From contig JANJGN010000018.1 in NCBI GenBank assembly GCA_026770705.1, forward strand, positions 9,176,001 through 9,240,000: a DNA stretch of 64,000 bases, read 5' to 3'. Below, piece after piece: positions 7,075-54,130 of this stretch. A model generated the notes under the pieces. It saw only the letters and a list, made by a program, of their open reading frames with translations. It had not been told where the DNA came from and ran no database searches. This stretch comes from Isurus oxyrinchus. Its lineage: Eukaryota. Numbering within the stretch: the first letter of the stretch is position 1; every line of letters starts with the position of its first letter. A program made the position numbers and the translations under genes.

Positions 7075-8655
7075 TTGACGTTACGAGTCCTCATGACTCT
7101 TCCACAGAACTGAGTGAATGTAAGGAGAGGGGTGAAATATAAGCTGGTTTAAGGTGGGGGGGTGTGTGGGGGAGAGAAGTGGGGGGGGCGGTGTGGTTGT
7201 AGGGATAAGCAAGCAGTGATAGGAGCAGATAATCAAATGATGTCACAGACAAAAGAATAAAAGAACAAAGAGGTGTTGAAGGTGGTGATATTATCTAAAC
7301 AAATGTGCTAATTAAGAATGGATGGTAGGGCACTCAAGGTACAGCTCTGTTGAGGGTGGGGTGGAAAGGCTAGCAGGGCATAAAAGATTTAAAAATAATG
7401 GAAATAGGTGGGAAAAGAGAAATCTATATAAATTATTGGAAAAAAACAAAAGGAAGGGGGAAGAAACAGAAAGGGGGTGTGGATGGAGGAGGGAGTTCAA
7501 GACCTAAAGTTGTTGAATTCAATATTCAGTCCGGAAGGCTGTAAAGTGCCTAGTCGGAAGATGAGGTGTTGTTCCTCCAGTTTGCGTTGGGCTTCACTGG
7601 AACAATGCAGCAAGCCAAGGACAGACATGTGGGCAAGAGAGCAGGGTGGAGTGTTAAAATGGCAAGCGACAGGGAGGTTTGGGTCATTCTTGCGGACAGA
7701 CCGCAGGTGTTCTGCAAAGCGGTCGCCCAGTTTATGTTTGGACTCTCCAATGTAGAGGAGACTGCATTGGGAGCAACGAATGCAGTAGACTAAGTGAAGC
7801 AGCATTTCAAGTGAAGCAGCATTTCACTTGCATTTCCCCCAACTTAGTCTACTGCATTCGTTGCTCCCAATGTGGTCTCCTCTACATTGGAGAGACCAAA
7901 CGTAAACTGGGCGACCGCTTTGCAGAACACCTGCGGTCTGTCCGCAAGAATGACCCAAACCTCCCTGTCGCTTGCCATTTTAACACTCCACCCTGCTCTC
8001 TTGCCCACATGTCTGTCCTTGGCTTGCTGCATTGTTCCAGTGAAGCCCAACGCAAACTGGAGGAACAGCACCTCATCTTCCGACTAGGCACTTTACAGCC
8101 TTCCGGACTGAATATTGAATTCAACAACTTTAGGTCTTGAACTCCCTCCTCCATCCACCCCCTTTCTGTTTCTTCCCCCTTCCTTTTGTTTTTTCCAATA
8201 ATTTATATAGATTTCTCTTTTCCCACCTATTTCCATTATTTTTAAATCTCTTATGCCCCACTAGTCTTTCCACCCCACCCCCACTAGAGCTGTACCTTGA
8301 GTGCCCTACCATCCATTCTTAATTAGCACATTCGTTTAGATAATATCACCACCTTCAACACCTCTGTGTTCTTTTGTTCTTTTGTCTGTGACATCTTTTG
8401 ATTATCTGCTCCTATCACTGCTTGCTTGTCCCTACAACCACACCACCACCCTCTACTTCTCTGCTCTACCCCCCACCCAACCGCACCTTAAACAGCTTAT
8501 ATTTCACCCCTCTCCTTATATTCGCTCAGCTCTGTGGAAGGGTCATGAGGACTCGAAACGTCAATTCTTCTCCGCTGATGCTGCCGGACCTGCTGAGTTT
8601 TTCCAGGTAATTCTGTTTTTGTTTTGGATTTCCAGCATCCGCAGTTTTTTGTTTT
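7075..8655. mobile_element. Penelope-like element 3' part as a head-to-head inverted duplication (GIY-YIG endonuclease C-terminus, 3' UTR and hammerhead on both arms)
   Basis: 7075-7792 is the reverse complement of about 7841-8565. Both arms encode LVYCIRCSQC..LYIGE.K..LGDRFAEH...GLNIEF*. TSD tatcaaa(c/t)tcag at 7063-7074 and 8656-8667. Confidence 0.93.
8528..8566 (+). ncRNA. Minimal type-I hammerhead ribozyme motif of PLE (variant core CUGUGGA)
   Basis: AGCU-CUGUGGA-A-GGGUC-augag-GACUC-GAAA-CGUC-AAUU; the mirror copy lies at 7073-7111 on the minus strand. Confidence 0.65.
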
Positions 8656-9754
8656 TATCAAATTCAGCCTTGAAAATTTATATTGTCAAAGCATCCAAAG
8701 CCTTTGAAGGAGAGAATTAGATATTTCCATGAACCTTTTACGTGAAAAACTGCTTCCTTACTTCACCCCTGAATAACCCAACTCAAATTTTAAGATTGTG
8801 TCCTCTTGTTGTGGATTTCTCACCAGAGGAAATAGCTTCGCTGTCTATACTTTATCAAATCCTTTTATCATTTTAAACACCCCCATTAGATCACCCCTCA
8901 AACATTTAAACTCAAAGGAATACACTCCTAAGAAATCTGCAATGTCCACACATGTTCTTTTTGACAAAGCATCCATTCGCTGTGTAAGAATAACACTCAA
9001 TGATTTGTTAAACTAATCAAATCTCACTTTGTTCTAGATGGGAAGACAAGAAAGGGGAAGGGGGTTGCCATTGATGGTTGAATAGTGTGAAAATCAGGCC
9101 TCTCAGGTAAACACTGGGATTAACATGCTGCACATCAGAGAATGATAGTTACTCGAAAGTAAGAAGGTTACTTAATCCAGTTCCAAAAATGCATCTGTTC
9201 AAGCTGAAAGAACGTGACTTCGATCTAGCCCTACTCAGATTTCTAACAGTGTTGCTAATAACTGAGCATAACACAACAGCTTATGCCATTTCATTTACTA
9301 TCTGTACCTTCTTTAAGATATTTTGATGACGCAATAAGGCAGTGCATTAATGCAAATGTGTTCTTTGAACATTTCATAATCCTATAGTTTGCCTTAAATA
9401 GACATGGGCAATTGCCAAATCAGGTCAGTTGTATTTGCCTAGGTTAAACAAATCCTTTCTTTCATGAATACAGAATATATTACAGATGCTGTAAATTTGA
9501 AACAGAAAGTTGACATTTCAGTCATCGTTCTGACACAGACACCATTTCATCCCATTAAGCATTTCTGGTGTTTTCTACTTTTCTTCTTACATTCTTCTGG
9601 CTCAGTTCAGATTTGGCAAGTGTTTATTTTCTGAATATTTCGGTTATAAAGTCAGTTTACTGTGAATATTTTGTTTACACCATCTAACAGCCTTGAGATA
9701 ATGCAACACATAAATTCTGTGCGATGTCTTCTACTTTCCCAATTTTTAAAAAAT

Positions 9755-18310: not shown

Positions 18311-19266
18311 TGTCATGATCAGCCTACTCAGCTTACTTACAACACAAGCTCACCAGAGCAGCATTAACCAAAAAGGCTTTTGCGGTGGCCAACACAAGAT
18401 GTGTGTGTACTCAGTGCAGACATATTTTGGACCCAAAATGGTACCCATAGTGCCAAAAGTACCAGATAATCTTGCAGCTGCTAAAGTATATTTGGTAAGT
18501 GAGAAGAGATTGGAAGCACTGAAAGTGAATATTTTAAAAGGCCGACTGATGACAAGGTAACAAAAAGACCCTTTGTAAACACACAAAATGTGAAAGAGTA
18601 GTTAAAGGGACTGTAGAAAACACTCAAGAGCAAAGATAAAAATTCAGTTGTGAAGGAGGAAGGTATAAAAGTAAAGAAGGGGCTTGTATTTATATAAAAC
18701 CTTCACATCCTCTGAATGTGCATCATGGTCATTGGAGTACCCTTGAACCGTTGTCACTGCTGTGCTGGAGAAAATGGGGCAACCAATGTACAAGAAACAA
18801 GTTCACACTAACCGCAATGTTATAATGAGCAGATAATGTTTATTTTTGATGACAGATAAACACTGGCCAGGGCAACAAGAAGAAATTCCTGATGAATCTC
18901 TTCATTTCCAGGCGTTCTCGCAGGGGAGTCAGAGCTGCTTTTCTTCTCTGCCAGGGCCAGGCAAGCCCAACGATCAGAGGGGAAATCATTCAACGACAGC
19001 ATCAGAGGAGCCTTTGCCACCGGGCCCCTCTCTTTGGACCAGGGAGCCTCTGGCTCTGACAGCCTCCACAGAAAGCTACAGGGAGGCAGCCTCTTTGGAA
19101 TTGGCAACTGCCCCCCTTATGGCATGTGACCACTCCTAGCCCACCACCCAGGAGGTAGTAAACTTCTATAAAAACAAAGAGAACTGCGGATGCTGGAAAT
19201 CCAAAACAAAAACAGAATTACCTGGAAAAACTCAGCAGGTCTGGCAGCATCGGCGGAGAAGAAAAG

Positions 19267-19305
19267 AGTTGACGTTTCGAGTCTTCATGACCCTTCGACA
19301 GAACT
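19267..19305 (-). ncRNA. Minimal type-I hammerhead ribozyme motif (variant core CUGUCGA)
   Basis: AGUU-CUGUCGA-A-GGGUC-augaa-GACUC-GAAA-CGUC-AACU. Confidence 0.72.
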
Positions 19306-19695
19306 TGATTTCGAGTCCAGGAAAGAGTTGAAATATAAGCTGGTTTAAGGTGTGTGGGGGGGGGGGGGGTGCGGAGAGAGAGAGAGAGACAGAGGTGCTT
19401 GTGTAGACAAACAAGCAGTGATAGAAGCAGATCATCAAAAGATGTCAGTGACAATGGGACAAAAGAACACATAGGTGTTAAAGTTAAAGTTGGTGATATT
19501 ATCTAAACGAATGTGCTAATTAAGAATGGATGGTAGGGCACTCAAGGTACAGCTCTAGTGGGGGTGGGGGGAGCATAAAAGATTTTAAAATATTTAAAAA
19601 TAAGTGGGAAAAGAAAAATCTGTAAAATTTATAGGGAAAAAAAAAGGGGGAAAAAAAGGGGGAAACAGAAAGGGGGTGGGGATGGGGGAGGGAGC

Positions 19696-21576
19696 TCACG
19701 ACCTAAAGTTATTGAATTCAATATTCAGACCGGAAGGCTGTAAGGTGCCTAGTCGGAAGATGAGGTGTTGTTCCTCCAGTTTGCGTTGGGCTTCACTGGA
19801 ACAATGCAGTAAGCCAAGGACAGACATGTGGGCAAGAGAACAGGGTGGAGTGTTAAAATGGCAAGCGACAGGGAGGTTTGGGTCATTCTTGCGGACAGAC
19901 CGCAGGTGTTCTGCAAAGCGGTCGCCCAGTTTACGTTTGGTCTCTCCAATGTAGAGGAGACCACATTGGGAGCAACGAATGCAGTAGACTAAGTTGGGGG
20001 AAATGCAAGTGAAATGCTGCTTCACTTGAAAGGAGTGTTTGGGCCCTTGGACGGTGAGGAGAGAGGAAGTGAAGGGGCAGGTGTTACATCTTTTGCGTGG
20101 GCATGGGGTGGTGCCATAGGAGGGGGTTGAGGAGTAGGGGGTGATGGAGGAGTGGACCAGGGTGTCCCGGAGGGAGCGATCCCTACGGAATGCCGATAAG
20201 GGGGGTGAAGGGAAGATGTGTTTGGTGGTGGCATCATGCTGGAGTTGGAGGAAATGGCGGAGGATGATCCTTTGAATGCGGAGGCTGGTGGGGTGATAAG
20301 TGAGGACAAGGGGGACCCTATCATGTTTCTGGGAGGGAGGAGAAGGCGTGAGGGCGGATGCGCGGGAGATGGGCCGGACACGGTTGAGGGCCCTGTCAAC
20401 GACCGTGGGTGGAAAACCTCGGTTAAGGAAGAAGGAGGACATGTCAGAGGAACCGTTTTTGAAGGTAGCATCATCGGAACAGATGCGACGAAGGCGAAGG
20501 AACTGGGAGAATGGGATGGAGTCCTTACAGGAAGCGGGGTGTGAGGAGCTGTAGTCGAGGTAGCTGTGGGAATCGGTGGGTTTGTAATGGATATTAGTGG
20601 ACAGTCTATCACCAGAGATTGAGACAGAGAGGTCAAGGAAGGGAAGGGAAGTGTCAGAGATGGACCACGTGAAAATGATGGAGGGGTGGAGATTGGAAGC
20701 AAAATTAATAAATTTTTCCAAGTCCCGACGAGAGCATGAAGCAGCACCGAAGTAATCATCGATGTACCGGAGAAAAAGTTGTGGAAGGGGGCCGGGGTAG
20801 GACTGCAACAAGGAATGTTCCACATATCCCATAAAGAGACAGGCATAGCTGGGGCCCATGCGGGTACCCATAGCCACACCTTTTATTTGGAGAAAGTGAG
20901 AGGAGTTGAAGGAGAAATTGTTCAACGTGAGAACAAGTTCAGCCAGACGGAGGAGAGTAGTGGTGGATGGGGATTGTTCGGGCCTCTGTTCGAGGAAGAA
21001 GCTAAGGGCCCTCAGACCATCCTGGTGGGGGATGGAGGTGTAGAGGGATTGGACGTCCATGGTGAAGAGGAAGCGGTTGGAGCCAGGGAACTGGAAATTG
21101 TTGATGTGACGTAAGGTGTCAGAGGAATCACGGATGTAGGTGGGAAGGGACTGGACAAGGGGAGAGAGAAGGGAGTCAAGATAACGAGAAATGAGTTCTG
21201 TGGGGCAGGAGCAAGCTGAGACGATCGGTCTACCGGGGCAGTTCTGTTTGTGGATTTTAGGTAGGAGATAGAAGCGGGCCGTCCGAGGTTGGGCGACTAT
21301 CAGGTTGGAAGCTGTGGGAGGGAGATCCCCAGAGGAGATGAGGTCAGTGACAGTCCTGGAAACAATGGCTTGATGTTCAGTGGTGGGGTCATGGTCCAGG
21401 GAGAGGTAGGAGGAAGTGTCTGCGAGTTGACGCTCAGCCTCCGCGAGGTAGAGGTCAGTGCGCCAGACAACAACAGCACCACCCTTGTCAGCGGGTTTGA
21501 TGACAATGTCAGGGTTGGACCTGAGAGAATGGAGTGCAGTAAGTTCAGAGAGAGACAGGTTAGAATGGGTGAGAGG
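19696..21576 (-). CDS. PLE reverse transcriptase + GIY-YIG endonuclease (N-terminally truncated, no stops)
   Basis: Manual translation extends the listed 454-aa ORF 172 codons upstream without a stop: IKPADKGG, FYLLPKIHK, GRPIVS, MDVQSLYT, GVAMG, RYIDD, FLD, Cys linker CPRKRCNTC (Neptune hallmark), LVY...YIGET, GLN. Confidence 0.93.
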   Translation of the reverse strand, partial: PLTHSNLSLSELTALHSLRSNPDIVIKPADKGGAVVVWRTDLYLAEAERQLADTSSYLSLDHDPTTEHQAIVSRTVTDLISSGDLPPTASNLIVAQPRTARFYLLPKIHKQNCPGRPIVSACSCPTELISRYLDSLLSPLVQSLPTYIRDSSDTLRHINNFQFPGSNRFLFTMDVQSLYTSIPHQDGLRALSFFLEQRPEQSPSTTTLLRLAELVLTLNNFSFNSSHFLQIKGVAMGTRMGPSYACLFMGYVEHSLLQSYPGPLPQLFLRYIDDYFGAASCSRRDLEKFINFASNLHPSIIFTWSISDTSLPFLDLSVSISGDRLSTNIHYKPTDSHSYLDYSSSHPASCKDSIPFSQFLRLRRICSDDATFKNGSSDMSSFFLNRGFPPTVVDRALNRVRPISRASALTPSPPSQKHDRVPLVLTYHPTSLRIQRIILRHFLQLQHDATTKHIFPSPPLSAFRRDRSLRDTLVHSSITPYSSTPSYGTTPCPRKRCNTCPFTSSLLTVQGPKHSFQVKQHFTCISPNLVYCIRCSQCGLLYIGETKRKLGDRFAEHLRSVRKNDPNLPVACHFNTPPCSLAHMSVLGLLHCSSEAQRKLEEQHLIFRLGTLQPSGLNIEFNNFRS

Positions 21577-22399
21577 ATTCTGTCCAGTGTGTTTTCATAA
21601 TTTCAAATGAGTGGTTAGCATATGCAAATGAACAACCCGCATCTCCCAAGGGGCTTTTATGTAGGAAGCCTAACACACTGAGGTCAAACACAGAAGTCAG
21701 TGAGCTGCAGTCCGCTTCCCAAGTTGCTGAAAGTATTGCCTGTTTTAACCCCCCCCTCCCACACCCAAACACACACACTCAGCCATGTTAAAATTCAGCC
21801 CTTTCTGTCGAAAACATAATGCATCAATCATAAATTCACCTACTTTGAAGTTGTGCCCTTTAACATATCCAGTAAATAAGGGCTGAGCCATCAGAGGATC
21901 TTACAACCTGATTTCTGATTTTGAAAAATATTGTCAAATCCTGAGGGGATTCCGAAAACATCTTACACAGAGCAGTTTACCATAATCCTATGGCCTTATT
22001 GGGAAGGCAGTAAAAAGCACATTATAATGTCATAATTTGTCACTGAGGAGATACTAGAATCAATCGACATCGTCTAATATGTGATGGAAAAGACCTGCAA
22101 TCATCCACGTTGTTAAATTAAACACTCCTCTAAATGTTGTGGTCAGCCCATTTCCAGCATTTAAATGGCTTCAACGCATCTCAGATAGTTTCAAATTGTT
22201 AATTCTGCCATTTGTAAATTTAGCATGGAAATATCGGTAAAGTTATTTCAATCAATGAACAACAGTTAATCTTAAAACACTGCATTTTGTAGATGGACAT
22301 GTAATTTTGTTAATGAAATCTCTATATTTCTTGGAATATAGAATAATGATTCTACTTTTTCAAAACTAACTGTTGGAATACTTTAGATAAAAGGATTTT

Positions 22400-29484: not shown

Positions 29485-29564
29485 AGTGTTTCAGGTCAAT
29501 GACCTTTTAACAGAACTTTGATCCCAGTTCTAATGAAAGGTCATCAACCTGAAACATTAACTCT

Positions 29565-30904: not shown

Positions 30905-31246
30905 TCTGTTTCTCCTGTCACAGACCCTGCCTGACCTGAGTATTTTCAGCATTTTCCAGTTTCATTATATTATTTATTATATAAAAACCTCTATGTTCCA
31001 CACTAGATAGGCCTGGCCTTTTGTAAAAGGCTTCCAAATTAGGGACAGTTTTCTCATCCGCAAGTTATTCTCCATATTATTCCGTATGAACTAAAAAGCA
31101 TTGACTTCTTGTAATGGTTTTTATTTTGAAACGACTTAGGTACTGCTCATTGCCCCCCTGCCCTTCTAACCACTGCCACTCTCAATGCAAGATTGTGTCT
31201 TATAAAAAGAAAAATTCAGCTGGCAGGGCAGCAAGTCCGATCTTAT

Positions 31247-31470
31247 AAAAACAAAGAAAACTGCGGATGCTGGAAATCCAAAACAAAAACAGAATTACCT
31301 GGAAAAACTCAGCAGGTCTGGCAGCATCGGCGGAGAAGAAAAGAGTTGACGTTTCGAGTCCTCATGACCCTTCGACAGAACTGTTCGACAGTTCTGTCGC
31401 AGGGTCATGAGGACTCGAAACGTCAACTCTTTTCTTCTCCGCCGATGCTGCCAGACCTGCTGAGTTTTTC
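31247..31470. mobile_element. Fold-back mini-PLE: PLE 3' terminus plus inverted copy, two hammerheads
   Basis: Hammerheads at 31344-31382 (minus) and 31390-31428 (plus); perfect TSD caagtccgatcttat at 31232-31246 and 31471-31485. Confidence 0.92.
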
Positions 31471-31946
31471 CAAGTCCGATCTTATGTTGCTTCTAATACA
31501 TACACAGTTCTTCAACTGTCACACATGTTGCACTAAGACAAGACATTATTCTACTTTATTCTAAATATGTATTGCAGGCCTGAGCCAGGATAGGTGCAAA
31601 CCTGGGTCGGAGATACAGGAGCACATTGTGTTCCTGGTTCTGCAGCTTGTGTACATATTTAGCAAGGATCCCTGACTCTGGCCTTTCATGTCTGATAGGA
31701 GAAAAGACTGTAGTAACATTGTAGAAATTGTAAGGCCTTGTGGTGTATGATAAAGTAAACCATCGGTGTATTAGGCACACATAATTCACTCACTCTTCAA
31801 AGCTTCCGAGCTTTGCATTGTTTGTTGCTTCTCCTTTGTCCTTTTAATCAGTAAAACACTTAAGTTGTGTTATTTATCCTTTGCTTAGAGCTTGTCACTC
31901 AACCTTATTAAATTATAAAGTCAGAGTGTTTGCAGAGTCTACAAAG

Positions 31947-39601: not shown

Positions 39602-42600
39602 GGGCGGTATCGTCCCAGGTTTGCGGTAAGAGCGGTAAGGGGCGTGAAAAAAGACATTTTACCTCACAGGCAGTAATGGGGGGGTTTCTCACTGTATCGT
39701 CCCTTCCCGCCCCCATTAATTATGCAGTCATGGGTAACACACGCCATCGCTGGCGGCCAGCCTCCGATGTGCTCGCCACGCTGTTATCTCGCTGCTTCCT
39801 CACGCCAGGCACCATATTTAAACTGCAGCTACGCGCACAGTTCTCGATGCTTGCAGTCCAGGACAGCTCTGGTGAAGAATTGACCCCTAAAGCCAAGGAG
39901 TATGCAGCCCCCCCGATTCAGTGAGGCATCCCTGGGACACCTTCTGGATGCCATGGAGGCCTACCGCAATATCCTCTACCTCCACTCTAGCCGTAGGAGG
40001 TCTATCAGTGCCACCACTCCGGCTTACAAAACAATGGCAGTGGTGGTCAGTGCCAATGCTGCACACAAGAGTTCAGCCATCCAGTGCAGAAAACGGATGA
40101 ATGATCTCATCTGTGAGCCAGGGTAAGTCAACCATCTCCTCACTCTAAACTCCCACACTCACAAGGCCATCACACATTCACTGGTATCTCACTCACTGTC
40201 AACTCAAGGGACATCACCACTCACTCTCCCACACACACCCTCACACCTCCATCTGGCTGCATCTCCTCTGGAGGCTGCCTCCTCATCCCGTCCATGGCTC
40301 CATTCAGCACACACACACGTCTGGCATCCTTCTCACTGGCCTGGCATGCACCTTGCTCACACTCTCTCCTTCTGGCTTAATGTAGAACAAGATCATGCAC
40401 AATTACTGGGAGAGGTCCCAGACCGGGGGTGGGGGGGGGGGGGGGGGGGGTCAGGATTCTGTACCACATCATCCCTGTCTCTACACTACCCTAAGTCCAC
40501 TGTTCTGTGTTCAATGCAGCTACCAAGCACTGATAATCTCTACTTTCTGGCCTAGGCACATCTGACACGTCTCCCTCAGGCAAGCTTGACCCTGACCCCA
40601 GCGCGGAGACCAGTTCTGATGAGGACCCTGAAGGCAGGCCTGTTGAAGATCTGTCATGGCGCAGACCCACACCCTCCACCAGCACAGAGACACACACCTC
40701 GGTGGGACCTAGATGTAGAGCAGCCTCGGGATCACAATCTGGTGAGAACAGCACACAATCTGTTCCACAGCAGGCGGAGACAGGAATACCCCTTGTTCGC
40801 CGGCACTCGGAGGACTGCGGGAGGCAAGGGGTATTCTGAGTCCAAGACAGATGATGAGCCTCTGAACTCAGTCCTCAGTCAGTTAGTGGAGCTGCAAAGA
40901 CATTCACGGGAACATCAGGAAGGGATGTCTGGCGCGCTCCTCAGATTGCAAGAGACGATGGAGGAGTCTGTCTGCCTTCAGTCCGAGGTGATAGCGCCTG
41001 CCCGATAGCGGCTGCAATGCAGACATTGGTCCTGGACATCAGTTCTGCACTGCTGAGTTAGATGTTAGATAAACATAGAGAGGGGAGAATGTGAGAGATG
41101 AAAAAAGAGAGGAGAGAGTGTGAGAGATAAACTCAGAGAGGAGAGAGTGTGAAAGATAAACACAGAAAAGTGAGAGTGTGAGTGATAAACACAGAGAGGA
41201 GAGAGAGTGTGGGAGATAAACACAGTTAGGAGAGAGTGTGAGAGTTAAACACAGAGAGGAGAGAGTGTGAGTGATAAACACAGAGAGTATAGTGTGTGAG
41301 TGATAAATACAGAGAGGAGAGAGAGTGTGAGAGATAAACAGAGAGAGGAGAGAGTGTGAGTGATAAACACAGAGGAGAGAGTGTGATAGATAAGCACAGA
41401 GAGGAGAGAGTGTGAGTGATAAACACAGAGAGTATAGTGTGAGAGGGATAAATACAGAGAGGAGAGAGAGTGTGAGAGATAAGCACAGAGAGGAGAGAGT
41501 GTGAGTGATAAACACAGAGAGTATAGTGTGAGAGTGATAAATACAGAGAGGAGAGAGAGTGTGAGAGATAAACAGAGAGAGGAGAGAGTGTGAGTGATAA
41601 ACACAGAGAGTATAGTGTGAGAGAGATAAATACAGAGAGGAGAGAGAGTGTGAGAGATAAACAGAGAGAGGAGAGAGTGTGAGTGATAAACACAGAGAGT
41701 ATAGTGTGAGAGAGATAAATACAGAGAGGAGAGAGAGTGTGAGAGATAAACACTGAGAGGAGAGAGTGTGATAGATAAGCACAGAGAGGAGAGAGGGTGA
41801 GTGATAAACACAGAGAGTATAGTGTGAGAGAGATAAATACAGAGAGGAGAGAGAGTGTGAGAGATAAACACAGAGAGGAGAGTGATAAACACAGAGAGTA
41901 TAGTGTGAGTGATAAATACAGAGAGGAGAGAGAGTGTGAGAGATAAACAGAGAGAGGAGAGAGTGTGAGAGATAAACACAGAGGAGAGAGTGTGATAGAT
42001 AAGCACAGAGAGGAGAGAGTGTGAGTGATAAACACAGAGAGGAGAGAGTGTGAGTGATAAACACAGAGTATAGTGTGAGAGAGATAAATACAGAGAGGAG
42101 AGAGAGTGTGAGTGATAAATACAGAGAGGAGAGAGAGTGTGAGAGATAAACAGAGAGAGGAGAGAGTTTGATAGATAAGCACAGAGAGTATAGTGTGAGA
42201 GAGATAAATACAGAGAGGAGAGAGAGTGTGAGAGATAAACAGAGAGAGGAGAGAGTGTGAGAGATAAACACAGAGGAGAGAGTGTGATAGATAAGCACAG
42301 AGAGGAGAGAGTGTGAGTGATAAACACAGAGAGTATAGTGTGAGAGGGATAAATACAGAGAGGAGAGAGAGTGTGAGAGATAAACAGAGAGAGGAGAGAG
42401 TGCGAGATAAACACTGAGAGGAGAGAATTTGAGAGATAATCACAGAGAGGAGAGTGTAAACTTGGTTCCTGCACAAGATAAAGGCAGGTGTCTCAGTCCA
42501 GGGCTTCCTCCCTGTGTAGGGTGTAACATTCAGACCAAAGAGATGGTCCAACTTCACATTCACTGGACACATCAGTGATGCCTGCACCTAAGTGGTGCTT

Positions 42601-43761: not shown

Positions 43762-44059
43762 AAAGACGGAAAGTGCTGGAAAAACTCAGCAGATCCAGCA
43801 GCATCTGCGAAGACAGAAACAAAGTTAACATTCCGAGTCCGAAGAATAGTCTTTTGGACTCAAAAGGTTGACTCTGATCACTAAATAATTTGACACTGTT
43901 ACTGAAGGTGGGAAAGCCATTTACACAATTTTGCGTTTTGCTTCAGTTAGATTGGGGACCAAATGTTGATTGTAATTCATACAATAAATAAATGATAGGG
44001 AAATGGTGCAGATTGTGTAGGAAATACCAATAAATGCAGCTTGTAAGTTTTCATCCCTA

Positions 44060-45689: not shown

Positions 45690-48470
45690 ATGGCCAGCGA
45701 CCGGGCAGCACAAGAGGTGAAGGGCAGAGGAGGAGGAGGGGAGCAGGCTGCAGGGTAGGCCAGCGGTGGGGGGGGCCTGTGTGCCCCTCAGTTCTCAGAT
45801 GCCTGCCTTGCTATCCTCCTCAGAGAGGTGTCCAACCATCAGGAGGTCTTGTTTCCGGAGGATGGGAGGAGGAAGGCCCCCCACGTCACCAGGCAGGTGT
45901 GGGAGGAGGTGGCGGTTGCTGTTAGCTCCCATGATGCTGTGCGGCGCACAGGAACACAGTGCCACAAGCGCTTCAATGATTTGCTGCGCTCTGGAAGGGT
46001 GAGCACCATGTCAGCCTTGGCCATTTGACCCAGCAGGTAGCCTTAGTCTTTGAGGCCCACCCTCCACATCTTAGTGTTGTTACTGCATTGGGCATTTGGC
46101 GCATGCTGGGTGGGCAAACAGATAGTGCCCATGCTTACATCAGCCTGTGTGGGTGAGGAGAAGGTGGGTTCTCCCCGCAGCACATGTTGGTGTTTGTCTG
46201 GGGGTAACCTGCAGGGGAGACAGCTAGACACATACTCAAAACTCCAACACATGTCTTATTGATGGTGATGAGATGGTGGAAGGGGAACCTCAAGGTGTCG
46301 TGGCCAAGAGCCATCTGCTGGCCTCAGCACCACACCTAGTTGTGTCTCCTTGTCATGGACGCTAAGACCCGTGTGATATTCAAAGTGATGGACGCCGAAT
46401 GTGTCCAAGGTGGCTGTTGGGGGGAGGGGGTTGGGAGCAGCTGTACTATCTTCTGGGGACTGATCACCAGTAGTGTGGACAGGAGCCGCTGGAGGCCTCA
46501 GATGGGCCACTGTGGTTAGGGTGCGGTGTGCGCGTGCAGAGTACATGAGTGATCAGCCCCAATTAATCCTCTTCTCTGTTCTGCAGACAAAAACAGAGAA
46601 CAATATGAGGGAGCACCAGCGGACTGGTGGTGGGCACACCGTGCTCCAGTGCCTCATCACCTACGAGGAGCAGGCCATGGAGCTGGGGAGGAGGCAGGTG
46701 GCCAGGACAGCAGGTGTGGGTGAAGCTGGGGGTCAGCCGCCAGGTATTTGAGGGCCACAGTCCCATCCACTGTCTCCCCACCATCCAAAGCACTGATGGT
46801 TGCTGCAATCGTTAATGCAGCAACACTGCTCATTCACAGACTGATACACTCAGACGTGTGGGTCATACACAAAGGTCCCTCGCCCCTTGATGCCATGCCA
46901 TGGCATTGCTGCTGCATAGCTAAAGACGTTTTGCATCTTAGGAGGGTTTGTACCGTCACCACCCTTTCAGCCAGTGCGTCCCACATTACTCTGTCCAAAA
47001 GGTCCTCAGCACCTCACCTGTCAACCTCACAGCACTCAACTTAAATAAATACCACCACATTACTCATCCCTGTGCTAAGGGGAAATGTTGCCCTCTGTCC
47101 ACCCGTTCTATGCCTCTCAAAATGATATGAAGGTCAATAATGTGACCTGTCGATCTCCTGTGATCCACGGCAAATGTCACAAGTGCTTGCGATGTTTCCT
47201 CATCACTCCAACTCTCCAGTCCAGCATGCATCCAGGTCAGGTACCTCTGCACTCTCCCCACTCCAATCCCATCCCTCCCATGAAGCGCAGGTCACAACTG
47301 AACGCAGAAGTGTAGATGTGGCCTCGACAGCGTTTTCTGCAATTGCAACATGACCTCCCTTTTCCTACATTCTATTCCTCGGCTAATAAAGGCAAGTCTG
47401 GCTGCGACCTTGTTAAACAATTTATGTTCCTGTTCTGCAAACCTAACGGTCTGCCAGCAAGGTCCCTGTAATCATCGTGACTTCCCACGGTCCTACCATT
47501 TCTCCTGTATTCCTGTACCTTGCTTGTCTTGCCCAAGTGCTTAACCGCACACTTATCCACATAACATTCCATGTGGCAGTCCTTAGGCCATCTGACCAGC
47601 CTGTCTGTATGTGTGTGTAATGTTTGGGCCTCCTCTTGACTATTTACCACCCCACCAATGTTCATCTCCTTAGGTTCTTGAAGGTTGAGTGCATTATGAT
47701 GTTGGGGGGGGAAAGGGATGAAAGGTGTTATTGACTGAACGCTAACTGATGCACTGTCCTTGTTGTTAATTTCAGCATCACCACTGCATGGCTGCCACCA
47801 GGAACAAGTCCAGAGCCCCCTCTCCACACCTGAGGGCCAAGACATGCAACTTGCGTCACATCCTTTCAGCCAGCCAGGCACCAGCACAGCGACTACCACA
47901 TCGGTGGGGAATTTAGTGTTAGCTAATGTCCCCGGGCACAGTGGAGAGGCCACTTCACAATCGCTGGAGGAGATGGCACGGACAGAGAGTGCCGATGGCG
48001 CCAGCAGCCGGAGGACTGCAGGAGACTGGGCACATACTGAGTTGGGCGGTGATGATGTGCCTCTGGAGATGTTAGCCATTCAGCAACTGCAGGGCAAGCA
48101 GCAGGGTGCACGGGAGCATCTGGCAGGGTTGCATGAGGGTGTGCTTCAGTTGGTCTCTGTGGTGGAGGAGTCCAGGCAGAGTGTCAGTGATGGCATGAAC
48201 CTCAGGACAGAGCTTCAGACTTCCTCCATTGAGAGATTGGCGACTCTCATGGAGAGGGGATTCAATCACAATGAGAATTTTCTGCTCGGATTACGCTCGG
48301 ACCTGCAAACCCTCACAGCACTAATGACCACGGGTGGTTATTGGCAATATGGGAGATGTTTTGGGCACCAAGTGTCACCACTTGGTGCCCATCCATCTGC
48401 AATGAGCAGGGAGGTCCAATGTGACCTCACATCGGCACAGCAGCTGCCTGTCATTGCTGTGAGCTCCTCT
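45690..48470 (+). pseudogene. Harbinger Myb/SANT-like DNA-binding protein gene, three exons (45690-45998, 46587-46743, 47776-about 48470)
   Basis: APQFSDACLAILL...WEEVAVAVS...TQCHKRFNDLLRSGR|gtgagc; ctgcag|TKTENNMRE..RTGGG...G|gtattt; ttcag|exon 3. Splice phases 0 and 1 are consistent. One in-frame TAG at 45756. Confidence 0.85.
47330..47670 (-). mobile_element. CR1 fragment inside intron 2 of the Myb/SANT gene
   Basis: GGVVNSQEE...DRLVRW...DKCAVKHLGK. Confidence 0.7.
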
Positions 48471-49324
48471 CAGGGCGTCATGAGCCACCTTGTGAGGGGA
48501 TAGCCCTTGTCACCCAGCAGCCATCCATCCAGCCGGGCTGGAGCACTGAAGAGCCCCGGCACCTGGAAGTGTCTGAGGATGTAGGTGTCGTGGGAGCTGC
48601 CTGGGTACCTTGCACACACTTGTAGAATCCGCATCCTGTGATCACACACTATCTGCATGTTCATGGAGTGGAAGCCCTTCCTGTTGACGAAGGCACCGGG
48701 CTCACCTGCTGGCGCCTTGATGGCCACATGTGTACAGTCTATAGCACCCTGGACACGGGGGTTGATAGCAATGGTCGCGAAGCCTCTGGCGCGCTGTGTC
48801 TGGATTGCCTGGTCGCAGCGGAAGTGGATGAAGATCAATACGCATCTGAACATAGCGTCTGTAACCTGCTTGACACAAATGTGGACAGCTGATTGGGAGA
48901 CACCGCAAAGATCACCCACCGAGCCCTGGAAGGAGCCAGAGACATAGAAGTTGAGGGCAACTTTGAGCTTCAGAGCCGCTGGCATGGGGTGTCCACCCAC
49001 ACATTTAGGGGAGATCTCAGGGCCAATCATCTGACAGATATAGTTGACTGTCTCCCTTGAGAGTCTGATCCTCCTTCGGCACTGCACCTCAGTCATATTG
49101 AGGTAGCTGCTTCGCCGCCTGTATACCCTGGCAGCAGGATAGTGGCATCTTCTGTGGCCCCTTCCACCTTGGACAACCTCTTGGCCCTGTGTCCCTTGTG
49201 TCTGCGCTTGGCCTCCCAAAGGTGGCTCCCCTGGAGGCTGATTGTCCACTCCTGGCCTCCTCCTTATTCTATCCCTCCCTTCCTCCTCAGAGGAGCTGCC
49301 TCCAGTGGAGATGTCAGAACCCAT
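48470..49324 (-). CDS. Harbinger DDE transposase (HARBI1-like), C-terminally truncated
   Basis: RVYRRR.SYL, ALNFY.SGSFQ, GAIDCTH, NRKGFHS.N.Q, YPGSSHD, LLGDKGYPL..WLMTP*. The third catalytic Glu is missing. Confidence 0.92.
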   Translation of the reverse strand: MGSDISTGGSSSEEEGRDRIRRRPGVDNQPPGEPPLGGQAQTQGTQGQEVVQGGRGHRRCHYPAARVYRRRSSYLNMTEVQCRRRIRLSRETVNYICQMIGPEISPKCVGGHPMPAALKLKVALNFYVSGSFQGSVGDLCGVSQSAVHICVKQVTDAMFRCVLIFIHFRCDQAIQTQRARGFATIAINPRVQGAIDCTHVAIKAPAGEPGAFVNRKGFHSMNMQIVCDHRMRILQVCARYPGSSHDTYILRHFQVPGLFSAPARLDGWLLGDKGYPLTRWLMTP

Positions 49325-50887
49325 ACCCAGGCTAAATGGAGGCCTCCGGAAAGCTGCAGGCCCGATAAAGATTCCTGTCTGCAGACTGGTGAGCTGAAGC
49401 TTCAAAGTACAGAGAAAGCTGTTGGAAATTGTTCTGAACTGGTAACAATCACACAGGCAAGTTTAAAACACTTTCTGCATTAAATACTTCATGAAAAACA
49501 TTATCAATCCCTCTGAGCCCACTATCCTGCCTGTGGATGAGGTTTGTTAAAAAATCACCTACCCACCTGCCCGTTGGGCCCACGCGCTGAGGTGAAGTTC
49601 GCACGGGCCCCTCAAAATCGGCTTCAATTGCCGAGTTAAGGGTCTTAATAAGGCCTTTAGTTAATGGCAGGCGCGCATCACACTTCATAGTGCGCCCACC
49701 CACCTCAATATCGCGATGCCGCGTGCTGACATCGGGACACTCACGCAATATGTTAAGCGCTGATGTGCAGGCTCCACCACCCACACGTCAGCCAGAAAAT
49801 CCTGCCCCTTGTGTTTAATGTCCCTCGTGGATAGTTTATACCTTGCAAATCTTTTAGTTTCTGGTCTTGGGAGAAGGACAACAACGTTAGGTGACTCTCC
49901 CCAAATTATATTTGTCACGTGGAACCATTCTCCACAAAGTCCACCTGAAGCCAGTGCGGAACACATCATTTAGTAAAGAGGACACATGCCCAAAATGAGG
50001 CCCATACTTGCAACAGTACAATTCAGGAGATCTCTAATTCAGTGGCAGCACACAGCAACAATCACTGATAGAGTGTGTGTCCTATGCTACTGGAAAGCCA
50101 AGTGTCACCTTTTACACTTAAGATTGCCATTGACTGCAAAAAAAAATGTGCATCTAGTTAAAGGAACGCAAACCAAACCATTCTGAATTTTCATTTAAAT
50201 TAATGCACTATATTCTGGAAATTAAAATGTATAAAAAATAATATAAGGGTTTTCCATTTTGCGAAAGAGAAACTCATGTCAGAAAAGGAAGCAGATGACA
50301 AAAAGTTGCACCTTTTCGATTCTTTCCGACTGCAGTTTTGATCCATACCTTCAACTCCTCTGTTTTCACCTCCATCTAAACTGCTCAGTTTCCAGTACTT
50401 TTCTCCCATGCGCTAATGAAGAACACTCCGTTGAAGCGGTTAATAAAAGGTATGTTTTATTTAAATTCTTATTGTAATCTAATCGAAAGTAACATTTCTT
50501 GAATGTTGAAAGTGTCGTTATCTATTGTATTTCCTCTGGGACTATACCATGAGCATCTCAAACTAAAGGGACAATTGTGATTTGACAACTCTAGTGTATG
50601 GTAGTATGAGTTTTAATGGCATAAACCTGCTTGAGTGCCGAGTGATAACACTAAAAATTAGATTGAGATCTGATTTATTAATTTTAGCATGTAATATTAG
50701 TGTGCATTTAATCACTTTGGCAGTCAGGCCAATGATTTGTTACAATAATTTGTTATAGAGTGCACCCTAGCGTGAAGTGAATACATCAATCAGCTTGTAA
50801 AGAGTTAGTAGTTTCAGCCTGTCTCTTTTCCAAACAGGAGTGATTCTACAGAGATGAATCATTGACAGACCAGTTAGGTTAAAATAA

Positions 50888-51104
50888 CAGAGATAAAAAC
50901 AAAAAAACTGCGGATGCTGGAAATCCAAAACAAAAAATAAAAAATACCTGGAAAAACTCAGCAGTTCTGGCAGCATCGGCGGAGAGGAGCACAGTTAACG
51001 TTTCGAGTCCTCATGTCCCTTCAACACTCGAAACATCAACTGTGCTCTTCTCTGCCGATGCTGCCAGACCTGCTGAGTTTTTCCAGGTATTTTTTATTTT
51101 TTGT
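50888..51104. mobile_element. Fold-back mini-PLE (inverted within the hammerhead)
   Basis: Arms aaatacctggaaaaactcagcag... and ...ctgctgagtttttccaggtattt; TSD ttaggttaaaataa at 50874-50887 and 51105-51118. Confidence 0.9.
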
Positions 51105-52129
51105 TTAGGTTAAAATAATACTCGTCACTGATCTGAAAAGGCAAGGGTATGTAAGCCTAAGAGGAAGGTAAACTGCTGCTCCTAGAGTTTTCGTTGAGTT
51201 TCATTGGAACAGTGTAAGACAGAGGTCATCAGGAAACCTGGGAGGGGGAATTAAAAGGGAAGGTCATGAGCAATAGGGCAAAGTATTTCATCTGCAAATG
51301 GTCTCCCCGCGTTGAGGAGACCACACCTTGATGTCTTACATCCAAGGAGTATTTGAGGCCCTGGAAATGGTATGGTAAGAGATGAATAGGCAAGTGTTGT
51401 TTTGTTCCTGCAGTTGCACGGAAAGATAAAATGGGAAGGTTAATTCAGGCACAAGATACGCCTTAGAGTTGTCAGTGACAGTGCTTTTCAGTGCAGAACT
51501 GAGGGAGTGCCATATTGCCTTGGCTGCCATCTTTCAGATAAGATGTTTAACTGAGACTACGTGAATATTCAGGGAGTCGTCAAAATATCCATTATCCTAT
51601 TTGAAAAAGAGCAGAAGGGCTCTTCTTGCATTCTTCCTAACATTTAATCCGTCAATCAACACTGCCAAAGACAGCTCTCATTTGTGGGATCTTGCTGTGT
51701 GCAAATTGGCTCTGCATGCATATATAATAACAATGTCTGCACTTCAAAAATAACCCAGTAGCAGTGAAACACTTTGAAACATTCCGAGGAAACGTGAAAG
51801 ACGCTATATAAATACAAGAGAGGTACAATTCAATAGCTCCCAAAAACAGCCGCTGGTATCAGAATGGGGGATTAACCCATGCCTATTCCTCCCAGTGCAG
51901 GCAGCACGTAAACATTGCGCTGCCTATTCATTTACATGATAGCATGCATCCCAGCACTGAATGTGCTGTTGAATGGTTGCATTTCTCAGTCACAGAGGCC
52001 CCTGTCTATGCTAGGCTATCACCAATTAAAGCTGAACACCACCACTTAAAGCCAGCCTGCCCCTCTGAAAAGGGAGGTCCATCCTAGCTGTGGTAGGTGT
52101 TCGACGTCACTGAAGAGTGTCTAACTTGA

Positions 52130-54130
52130 AACAAGAGTGAATATGGAGCATCCTCCAAGGTGCCCTGACACAGCACAGGAGGCCCTCTGGTATTGGATGG
52201 ACAGAAGGAGAAAGGTCTCGCATCTACAGGTGTTGGGAAACTTTTCAGACAAATTTTGCAAAGACAGCAGGACCCAGATAGTCATAAAAACAAAAAACTG
52301 TGGATGCTGGAAATCCAAAACAAAAACAGAATTACCTGGAAAAACTCAGCAGGTCTGGCAGCATCGGCGGAGAAGAAAAGAGTTGACGTTTCGAGTCCTC
52401 GTGACCCTTCGACAGAACTAGATAGTCATCGCTGTCAATGCAAGTAGTGTAGCCTGGAGGACCTGATGTGCAGAAAGAGATATAATGAACTCAGGAGTAA
52501 TCATGCACGATGAATTTATCCTCAAATGCCACATTCATAAAACTGAACGAGTACCTCACTACCCTACTCAATTCACCATACCCTTTCACTCAGCTACTAA
52601 CAACAACTGTAAAATGCAATTTATACCTCACATTCAAAGCTTCCCCTCAGCCTCACAAACCCAGCACGGCTGCAAGCCTCATATCCACATCTTGGACCTT
52701 GCACACACTGCCAACAATGACAGTCACACCAAACAAACCCTTTGCCCCATGAAAAGGCAGCAGGTAACTAGCAGCGGGAAGCATGGCTTCACCTCCTCAC
52801 CCCAGCTGAGGAGACAGTGCCAAGGCAAATGGAAGACTAAGTGGGTGCACAAGGGTCAACAGTTGGCATATGTATGGAACTTTGGATGGCTTTTTTTGAT
52901 AAAGTTGGTTCAGAAAGTTTGCTTTGAGGCAGCTTTTACTTCAGCAATTGCAGCCAAGAGAACGCTGTGATGGTCAGTGACAGAGGGATGGTGAGGAGTA
53001 GGAACACTGATGAATGGGGAACTCGTGTTGTGTTCAGAGATGCAGCTGTCAGAAGGGCTGGTCGCCTCCTCTGCTTTTTCCTCCTCAGCTGCTCACAGTA
53101 TACCTGGTGGAAAGATATGTGCTTTCATAATGGTGAGGCTGTACAGGATGCAGCAAATCATGATGAATCATAACATGCTCTCTGGAAAATACTGCAGGGC
53201 TCCTCCACAGTGGTCCAGGCAGCAGAAGCATCGCTTAAACAACCCCAAGGATTTTCTTGATGACATTCCATGTGGCAGAGGCTCTCATTCAATGCATGCT
53301 GCCCAAGTGTCCTTGGGTTATGTAGCAAAGTCGTGAACCAGGTGGTCAGCCCTTGTCACCCAGTAACTACCCTCTGATCTTTTCTGATGGCAGAAATGTT
53401 GATGGTACAGCCAAGTGGCACAGGACATAGGCAGCCTGACTGATATTTGGATATCAGATATTGACCTGATACTGGCCAATGCCCTGAGCATGTTTGTATA
53501 CCAGTTGCACACTAGGGGAATGGAAATATTTATGATTTATGCGGTGCAACAAAACAACGTGTGTGAAATCAATAGTACCCTATATCATAGGGAAGCCCCA
53601 GTATCCTGGCAAAGCCATGTGCTTATGTAAGCCATCTGCTTACTTGTCTCTGGAAAGAGAGAATGAAATGGCTTCCCTTCTCTTTGCACATTGGTCATCT
53701 CCCTTATATAACAGTGGGCAGCAAACTGCAAGATGTTAGAAGTTTCCCCTGCTCTAGCCTGGAAGAAGCCAGACACATAAACGTTCATGGCCGTGGTCAC
53801 CGACACAGCCACTGGTAGTGCCGTCCTTCCCCTGCTCTGTGGTTGTAGGCCTACCAGCAGCAAGTAGCGGATTTCACTGAGCCCCTCCTTAGCATAGTGA
53901 AAACATCTAGCGTACAGTTCCCCTCTGAAGTTGAGGTAGCAGAATTTCTCAATGAAAACCTTGGGCAGTTTTGGCCTCCTGCTGAGACATCTTCTCCCCT
54001 CTTCTCGCTCTCTTCAGGTAGCTTGTCCTACTCCGTGTAACCTTTACTCATTCTCTTTGTCACGCTGCAGGTGGAGATACAAACCACTGCCCCATGGCTG
54101 GTATCAAGTGGCCTGAGCAGATCTCCTGAA
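52130..54130. mobile_element. Old degenerate Harbinger (Myb remnant on plus, transposase on minus)
   Basis: Plus strand: PPRCPDTAQEAL. Minus strand, about 53100-53260: ILGLFKRCFCCLDHCGGALQYFPE..IMICCIL; ctcaacttcagagggg near 53935. Confidence 0.7.
52286..52419 (-). mobile_element. 134-bp PLE insertion consisting of a hammerhead plus 3' tail
   Basis: Hammerhead at 52381-52419; perfect TSD agatagtcat at 52276-52285 and 52420-52429. Confidence 0.92.

Follow-up and report, generated by a model that had tools for sequence, protein, structure and literature searches.

A body-less Penelope insertion in Isurus oxyrinchus with two head-to-head arms that turn at a likely RNA start

The window, a 64,000-nt stretch of contig JANJGN010000018.1 from Isurus oxyrinchus, contains an insertion of 224 bp that is located between two copies of a TSD and consists of two head-to-head arms and a 7-nt spacer. 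The left copy of the TSD (CAAGTCCGATCTTAT, 15 bp, 31232..31246), of which the final 2 nt also match the tail of the element, is followed by the tail-bearing arm on the minus strand (31247..31382, element +136 to +1), which is 98.5% identical to the end of an ORF-bearing copy at 19170-19305. The junction filler GTTCGAC (7 nt, 31383..31389, plus strand) connects it to the tail-less inverted arm on the plus strand (31390..31470), which covers +1 to +81, or +83 with the microhomology to the TSD, and borders the right 15-bp copy of the TSD (31471..31485). Here, +1 refers to the A of AGTT in the 5' strand of hammerhead helix I, which is placed at 31382 on the minus strand and at 31390 on the plus strand. 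A sequence-only reading of this DNA had suggested that the spacer is partly templated from the ribozyme core, and TTCGAC together with the initial AG of the right arm indeed repeats the left-arm positions 31371-31378. The two arms are complementary over 88 nt at 98%, and the predicted fold of the insert has an energy of -175 kcal/mol (z -25.6). A contig from run X19, which represents another sample, joins 31231 to 31471 with a single copy of the TSD. This empty site shows that the TSD is real and that the insertion is young, and it confirms the extent and position of the 224-bp insert with a perfect 15-bp TSD that the same reading had proposed.

Both arms contain a minimal hammerhead motif. 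The motif on the minus strand (31344..31382, GAAACGUC) has helix I AGUU/AACU, the core CUGUCGA and helix II GGGUC/GACUC, and by hammerhead numbering the cut is predicted between +35 and +36, corresponding to 31348 and 31347. The motif on the plus strand (31390-31428) has the core CUGUCGC and a further A-to-C change at 31400. Each strand thus carries a motif, as had been claimed, but neither core is the canonical CUGANGA. A descriptor composed of helix I, helix II with an extra base after position 9, GAAA, and a palindromic ACGU that replaces helix III, all of which are present here, gave 47 matches in 1.2 Mb and 0, 0 and 0 matches in three shuffles. The helix II variants among these matches keep pairing, and the core is canonical in 9 and non-canonical in 38 of the 47. 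A search of the stub, as we call such short insertions, against Rfam gave no hammerhead match and only chance matches to miRNA precursors. The A-to-C change at +11 was rejected as an arm-specific mark: the first 30 loci had been selected by the query, and the change occurs in 96 copies genome-wide and shows no arm bias (on the tail arm in 20 and on the tail-less arm in 10 of 30). An A6C change gives low hammerhead activity (PMC3088659), and the minimal hammerhead type of PLEs needs a dimer to cleave (PMC4209133). Cleavage of host transcripts from either strand by the ribozymes of the stubs, which the sequence-only reading had raised, would be unlikely because of the non-canonical cores, the dimer requirement and the predicted 88-bp duplex, which would dominate a read-through RNA and bury the motif.

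The parent family is represented in the window by a 5'-truncated copy on the minus strand (19168..21594) that contains an ORF (19696-21594), a 3' UTR, the ribozyme and the tail, with a TATA-like box about 32 nt before its +1 (19305). The single ORF encodes an RT (RVT_1, E 5e-8) followed by a GIY-YIG domain at the C terminus (E 7e-4, below the Pfam cut-off), as in EN+ PLEs of the Penelope/Poseidon type, and by resemblance the element may belong to the Poseidon clade. In the tandem copy L045, the unit is 3268 bp long and the ORF follows directly after +138, and the stub thus both ends an insertion and opens the unit. Accordingly, the earlier description of the insert as the PLE 3' terminus is correct for insertions but not for the repeat unit, whose 5' start it is. 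Partial tandems form the pLTRs, and a second pLTR was reached in 18 of 20 refetched copies. Read from +18 in L045, the ATG in helix II opens a frame of 18 codons only, and the long frame begins about 150 nt further on.

Three other sites in the window had been described as having the same architecture. At 50888-51104, there is a fold-back with a 14-bp TSD (50874..51118) and arms that turn at about +6 and +25, the latter arm being without the ribozyme core. At 29486-29562, there is an old inverted remnant (29487..29556) that consists of the two ribozyme motifs only, at 80%, and has no TSD above 5 bp. At 43765-43875, blastn gave no inverted self-match and there is no TSD above 6 bp, so that only an old short fold-back, recognised by eye, is left of the claim. 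The window also contains a non-inverted solo stub on the minus strand that extends from +1 to the tail (52276..52429, stub 52286-52419) with a 10-bp TSD, and a long fold-back of the same Penelope family with nested inverted arms (7075-8656). Other features are a 330-aa frame on the minus strand (48470-49462) that resembles a Harbinger-type DDE nuclease, another large frame adjoining it (47739-48503), and a long low-complexity tandem array that keeps several frames open (41039-42587). Genome-wide, one 38-mer of the stub occurs 87,605 times in 4.98 Gb, and young near-perfect palindromes of 80-100 bp number about 46,000 (95% range 23,000-82,000), as extrapolated from 11 in 1.2 Mb.

The distribution of arm ends was obtained by junction-blind sampling of 120 evenly spaced 10-kb stretches, 30 + 30 pattern loci and another 60 of the matches listed. 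The sample comprised 209 distinct arms, reduced to 169 index arms and to 159 after 10 internal pLTRs had been dropped; the arms, which are not all independent events, were required to contain +45..+82, and ends further downstream fall outside the sample. Ends at -8..+8 were found for 56 of the 139 arms at risk, a rate of 25 per 1000 nt that is about 19 times the upstream rate, compared to 1.3 per 1000 nt at -37..-300 and 1.6-5.7 at +9..+44. The peak is about 16 nt wide, and a single arm of the 159, L129, ends at the predicted cut site (+36). The rate at -9..-36 was 3.9 per 1000 nt versus 1.3 further upstream. In four arms (L055, L186, L231, L265), the end falls on the TATA-like box, between -23 and -30.

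Fold-backs were also counted genome-wide with exact patterns by the spacing between two 15-mers, which is 110 if both arms end at +1 and 40 if both end at the cut. There were 763 with a spacing of 22-47, 2302 with 48-73, 4723 with 74-99, 9549 with 100-125 and 1560 with 126-151, placing a cliff just upstream of +1 and making the cut-cut bin the smallest. Summed over the five bins, the counts amount to at least 18,897 fold-backs, and the proposed class of small palindromic insertions is thereby substantiated. Among the non-inverted (solo) short arms, 17 of 25 end at -8..+8 and none at +31..+44. In older relatives with the canonical core, 26 of 79 blast ends, which are imprecise, are placed at -8..+8 versus 3 at +31..+44. 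What peaks are thus cDNA ends, in inverted and non-inverted arms alike, and they do so where the ribozyme begins, at a distance of 35 nt from its cleavage site. Three short arms (L163, L211, L269) continue directly, without a change of orientation, into remote parts of the unit (about -2260, -1357 and +229), which suggests template jumps after the +1 region had been reached. At another locus (L179/L180, G000:C1:1177570-1177931), both arms end at +1 inside a 14-bp TSD, with about 200 bp of other DNA between them.

The sequence-only reading had taken strand inversion to be focused on the ribozyme, for which cleavage or folding would be the means, and had named a sharp peak, as opposed to a smooth spread, of the truncation and inversion points as support. 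A sharp peak exists, it falls exactly on the 5' edge of helix I, its shoulder at +9..+28 falls inside the motif, and one arm ends at +36. However, the peak is off the cut site and is shared by the non-inverted arms, and these two observations, together with the TATA-like box about 30 nt upstream, indicate that ribozyme cleavage does not account for it. Folded RNA would be expected to stall the RT on the 3' side of the RNA, full-length copies run past +1 (see below), and the cut-cut spacing bin is the smallest. Furthermore, the young core has a U at position 6, where changes lower the activity (PMC3088659, for A6C), and the older copies with the canonical core have their peak at +1 as well. Taken together, we consider a focusing role of the ribozyme highly improbable. 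The position +1 is instead likely to be the transcription start of the element RNA, judging from the surrounding sequence. The motif TATATTT is located 28-32 nt upstream of +1 and is kept across spacers that differ in sequence yet are 20-24 nt long, and +1 itself sits in YYAGTT, which resembles the Inr consensus. TATA plus Inr-like motifs have been described in a pLTR (PMC3846280), while Penelope in D. virilis has a TATA-less internal promoter (PMC2377424). No cap-derived G was seen: among solos, 1 of 14 has a G at -1, and among fold-back arms, 4 of 34. It is very unlikely that +1 is a 3' splice site (AG|UUCUG) and that the stops reflect a splicing intermediate. In the Penelope of D. virilis, an intron end and helix I fall together (PMC4209133), most of the spacers are pyrimidine-rich and end in AG, and CTTAT fits a branch point; but the arms keep the genomic bases -1 to -7 with no common upstream exon following, the spacer in L122 is purine-rich with upstream AGs, and, as a weak indication, no GT-AG joint ending at +2 was found in four contig runs of guessed RNA status.

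With moderate confidence, we interpret the focal insert as a single dead-end insertion of Penelope/Poseidon type in which the opening 80-140 bases of the unit are present twice, head to head. It was probably made by reverse transcription primed by both nicked target strands, each cDNA being copied until it ran off where the RNA is likely to have its 5' end. The endonuclease would cut the two target strands about 14 nt apart, and one target end would prime at +138 (the tail) and the other at about +103 (+82 in the focal insert), on the same RNA or a sibling. Both cDNAs would then run off the RNA at +1, the putative transcription start, and microhomology-type repair would connect their free ends, with GTTCGAC, which looks like a product of slip-back synthesis, as the filling. 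The ribozyme would mark the turning point for no other reason than that the RNA starts with it.

Several features of the arms bear on this reading. Their 3' ends are bimodal, at +95..+109 and +127..+138, and the focal short arm, which ends at about +82, belongs to a minor class (3 of 159 arms). A TSD of at least 11 bp surrounds 44 of 55 unbiased head-to-head pairs (mode 14, chance overlap included), and 42 of the 44 combine one tail arm with one tail-less arm inside the TSD. Once arms that were censored (25), without a partner (44) or direct-joined (8) had been set aside, short arms were paired with short (55) and long with long (22), and only 5 pairings were mixed. The two arms share 10 non-CpG variants versus a permutation mean of 0.7 (maximum 7 in 2000 permutations), and both arms therefore stem from one template or lineage. 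Priming on two strands would resemble the insertion of PAc in vitro, where both strands are cleaved and extended, two RT starts are separated by the tail, and ribozyme cleavage is dispensable (PMC11167929). Among the solos, a TSD of at least 11 bp is present in 8 of 18 tail-less and 1 of 7 tail-bearing ones.

The main rival to two-strand priming is a snap-back, in which a single cDNA that starts at the tail leaves the template at +1 and then folds back on itself to prime the second arm, with the endonuclease resolving the product at about +103 and central asymmetry arising from hairpin opening or later deletion. Self-priming is favoured in the Discussion of PMC3846280, and the tail has been ascribed to EN-mediated resolution (PMC8557442). 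The shared variants and the nearly equal turning points of many long pairs (-539/-589, -450/-462) fit a snap-back or gene conversion equally well, and the fillers are locally templated. However, tail-less ends are also found alone (18 of 25 solos), and the tail-less arm is the one that goes further 5', by at least 5 nt, in 11 of 35 minis, which one cDNA could not produce without later deletion; the tail arm extends further in 4. Each arm can thus hold sequence that is absent from the other, although the asymmetry of 11 versus 4 is not significant against 50:50 (P=0.12) and could result from later deletion at palindrome centres. The tail-less arm is at times longer by kilobases (-5/-853 in L250, +60/-1641 in L068), and L224 has arms that are unlike each other at two linked subfamily sites. 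We regard a snap-back as rather unlikely. It is extremely unlikely that the fold-backs form a self-propagating non-autonomous family, for which the at least 18,897 copies and the recurrence of simple microhomology junction types might speak. All 37 sampled junction strings differ, a few by CpG decay only, and the exact focal junction occurs five times genome-wide, the other four with the tail on the opposite arm and different short-arm ends. The stubs, which lack the one common junction and fixed ends of a SINE or MITE, are independent events, and the shared-junction outcome envisaged in the earlier reading was not borne out.

Full-length copies differ from the stubs with respect to +1. Thirty arms continue into the ORF, 22 to the locus edge, and 18 of these reach +44. 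None of the 18 stops at -8..+8 and 16 pass -100 (P=3e-4 versus 56/139), and hence +1 is no barrier to the RT; one further full-length copy (L193/L194) starts at +6. Within one copy, the upstream pLTR differs from the downstream one by 1.8%, versus 4.1% between copies (20 of 22 refetched), the own copy ranks first for pLTR similarity in 8 of 17, and a TSD of at least 9 bp is present around the whole copy in 8 of 20 refetched full-length copies. These three observations make it less likely that the partial tandems arose by insertion into copies already present. The missing stop, the similar pLTRs and the whole-copy TSDs suggest that copies of more than one unit arise in one event on a template that does not end at +1. 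Such a template may be a circle or a multimer transcript, or else the RT may jump efficiently. A simple LTR-like strand transfer was rejected, as it predicts at least 40% stops at +1 in full-length copies and none was seen in 18 (L193/L194 apart).

Of six arms with 3' ends at +186..+407, four have their start no more than 20 nt from +1, which is consistent with a linear RNA that was primed close to its 5' end. Tentatively, one Penelope RNA may serve in two template forms. A linear precursor primed near its 5' end would give stubs that stop at +1, while a unit-length circle, formed by a dimer cut of the two pLTR hammerheads and ligation, would give long or more-than-unit copies that never stop there and regenerate the promoter-bearing pLTR. 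The non-canonical young core (38 of 47), given the low A6C activity (PMC3088659), argues against a circle, as does the lack of reads ending at the cut in PMC11167929. If true, the two-template reading would support, from the genome itself, the rolling-circle role that PMC4209133 had proposed, and would offer an answer to how pLTRs are regenerated.

The origin of the inverted arms of PLEs and the regeneration of pLTRs have been stated to be open questions (PMC2377424, PMC8557442). The tens of thousands of stubs are base-level records of where cDNAs start and stop, and they yield direct tests of an RNA start at +1, of two-end priming and of a circular template. They also seed the genome with near-perfect palindromes of 80-100 bp, which could be a putative source of double-stranded RNA when read through.

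In LINE-1 twin priming, both target strands prime and a 5' inversion arises within one TSD, but the L1 cDNAs cover different parts of the RNA, whereas here both arms copy +1..+100 from defined starts. The layout of the insertion has been published for EN+ PLEs (Pen2a_Av, PMC3846280; PMC8557442; D. virilis, PMC2377424), which likewise have head-to-head arms, a one-sided tail of 30-40 bp, a TSD around the whole and, in the pLTR, a TATA plus Inr-like motif (PMC3846280). Their inverted 5'-truncated copy with a one-sided tail inside the TSD is found in 42 of the 44 pairs. The stubs differ from these published insertions in that they are without a body, occur in tens of thousands of copies and have turning points that peak at +1; the body-less stub is a real variant of this layout. 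PAc, a Poseidon element of Anolis carolinensis (PMC11167929), shares the RT with a C-terminal GIY-YIG domain, a unit that begins with the ribozyme and has an ATG in helix II, two classes of 3' ends that differ by the tail, and the stem-loop at the start sites; it was studied in vitro, and 5' junctions and inverted stubs are outside the treatment in its available text. A literature search that covered mainly openly accessible papers returned no report of the peak at +1 or of the contrast with full-length copies, and the genomic ends in the supplementary Fig. S2 of PMC11167929 may be relevant to the 5' ends. Non-LTR retrozymes (10.64898/2026.07.22.740005) are also short, non-coding and pLTR-derived with a type I hammerhead, but they form head-to-tail tandem families, whereas the stubs are head-to-head single events and the focal insert contains no head-to-tail tandem of hammerhead units. 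The focal insert represents the body-less extreme of the known Penelope layout, with its inverted pLTR, one-sided tail and TSD.
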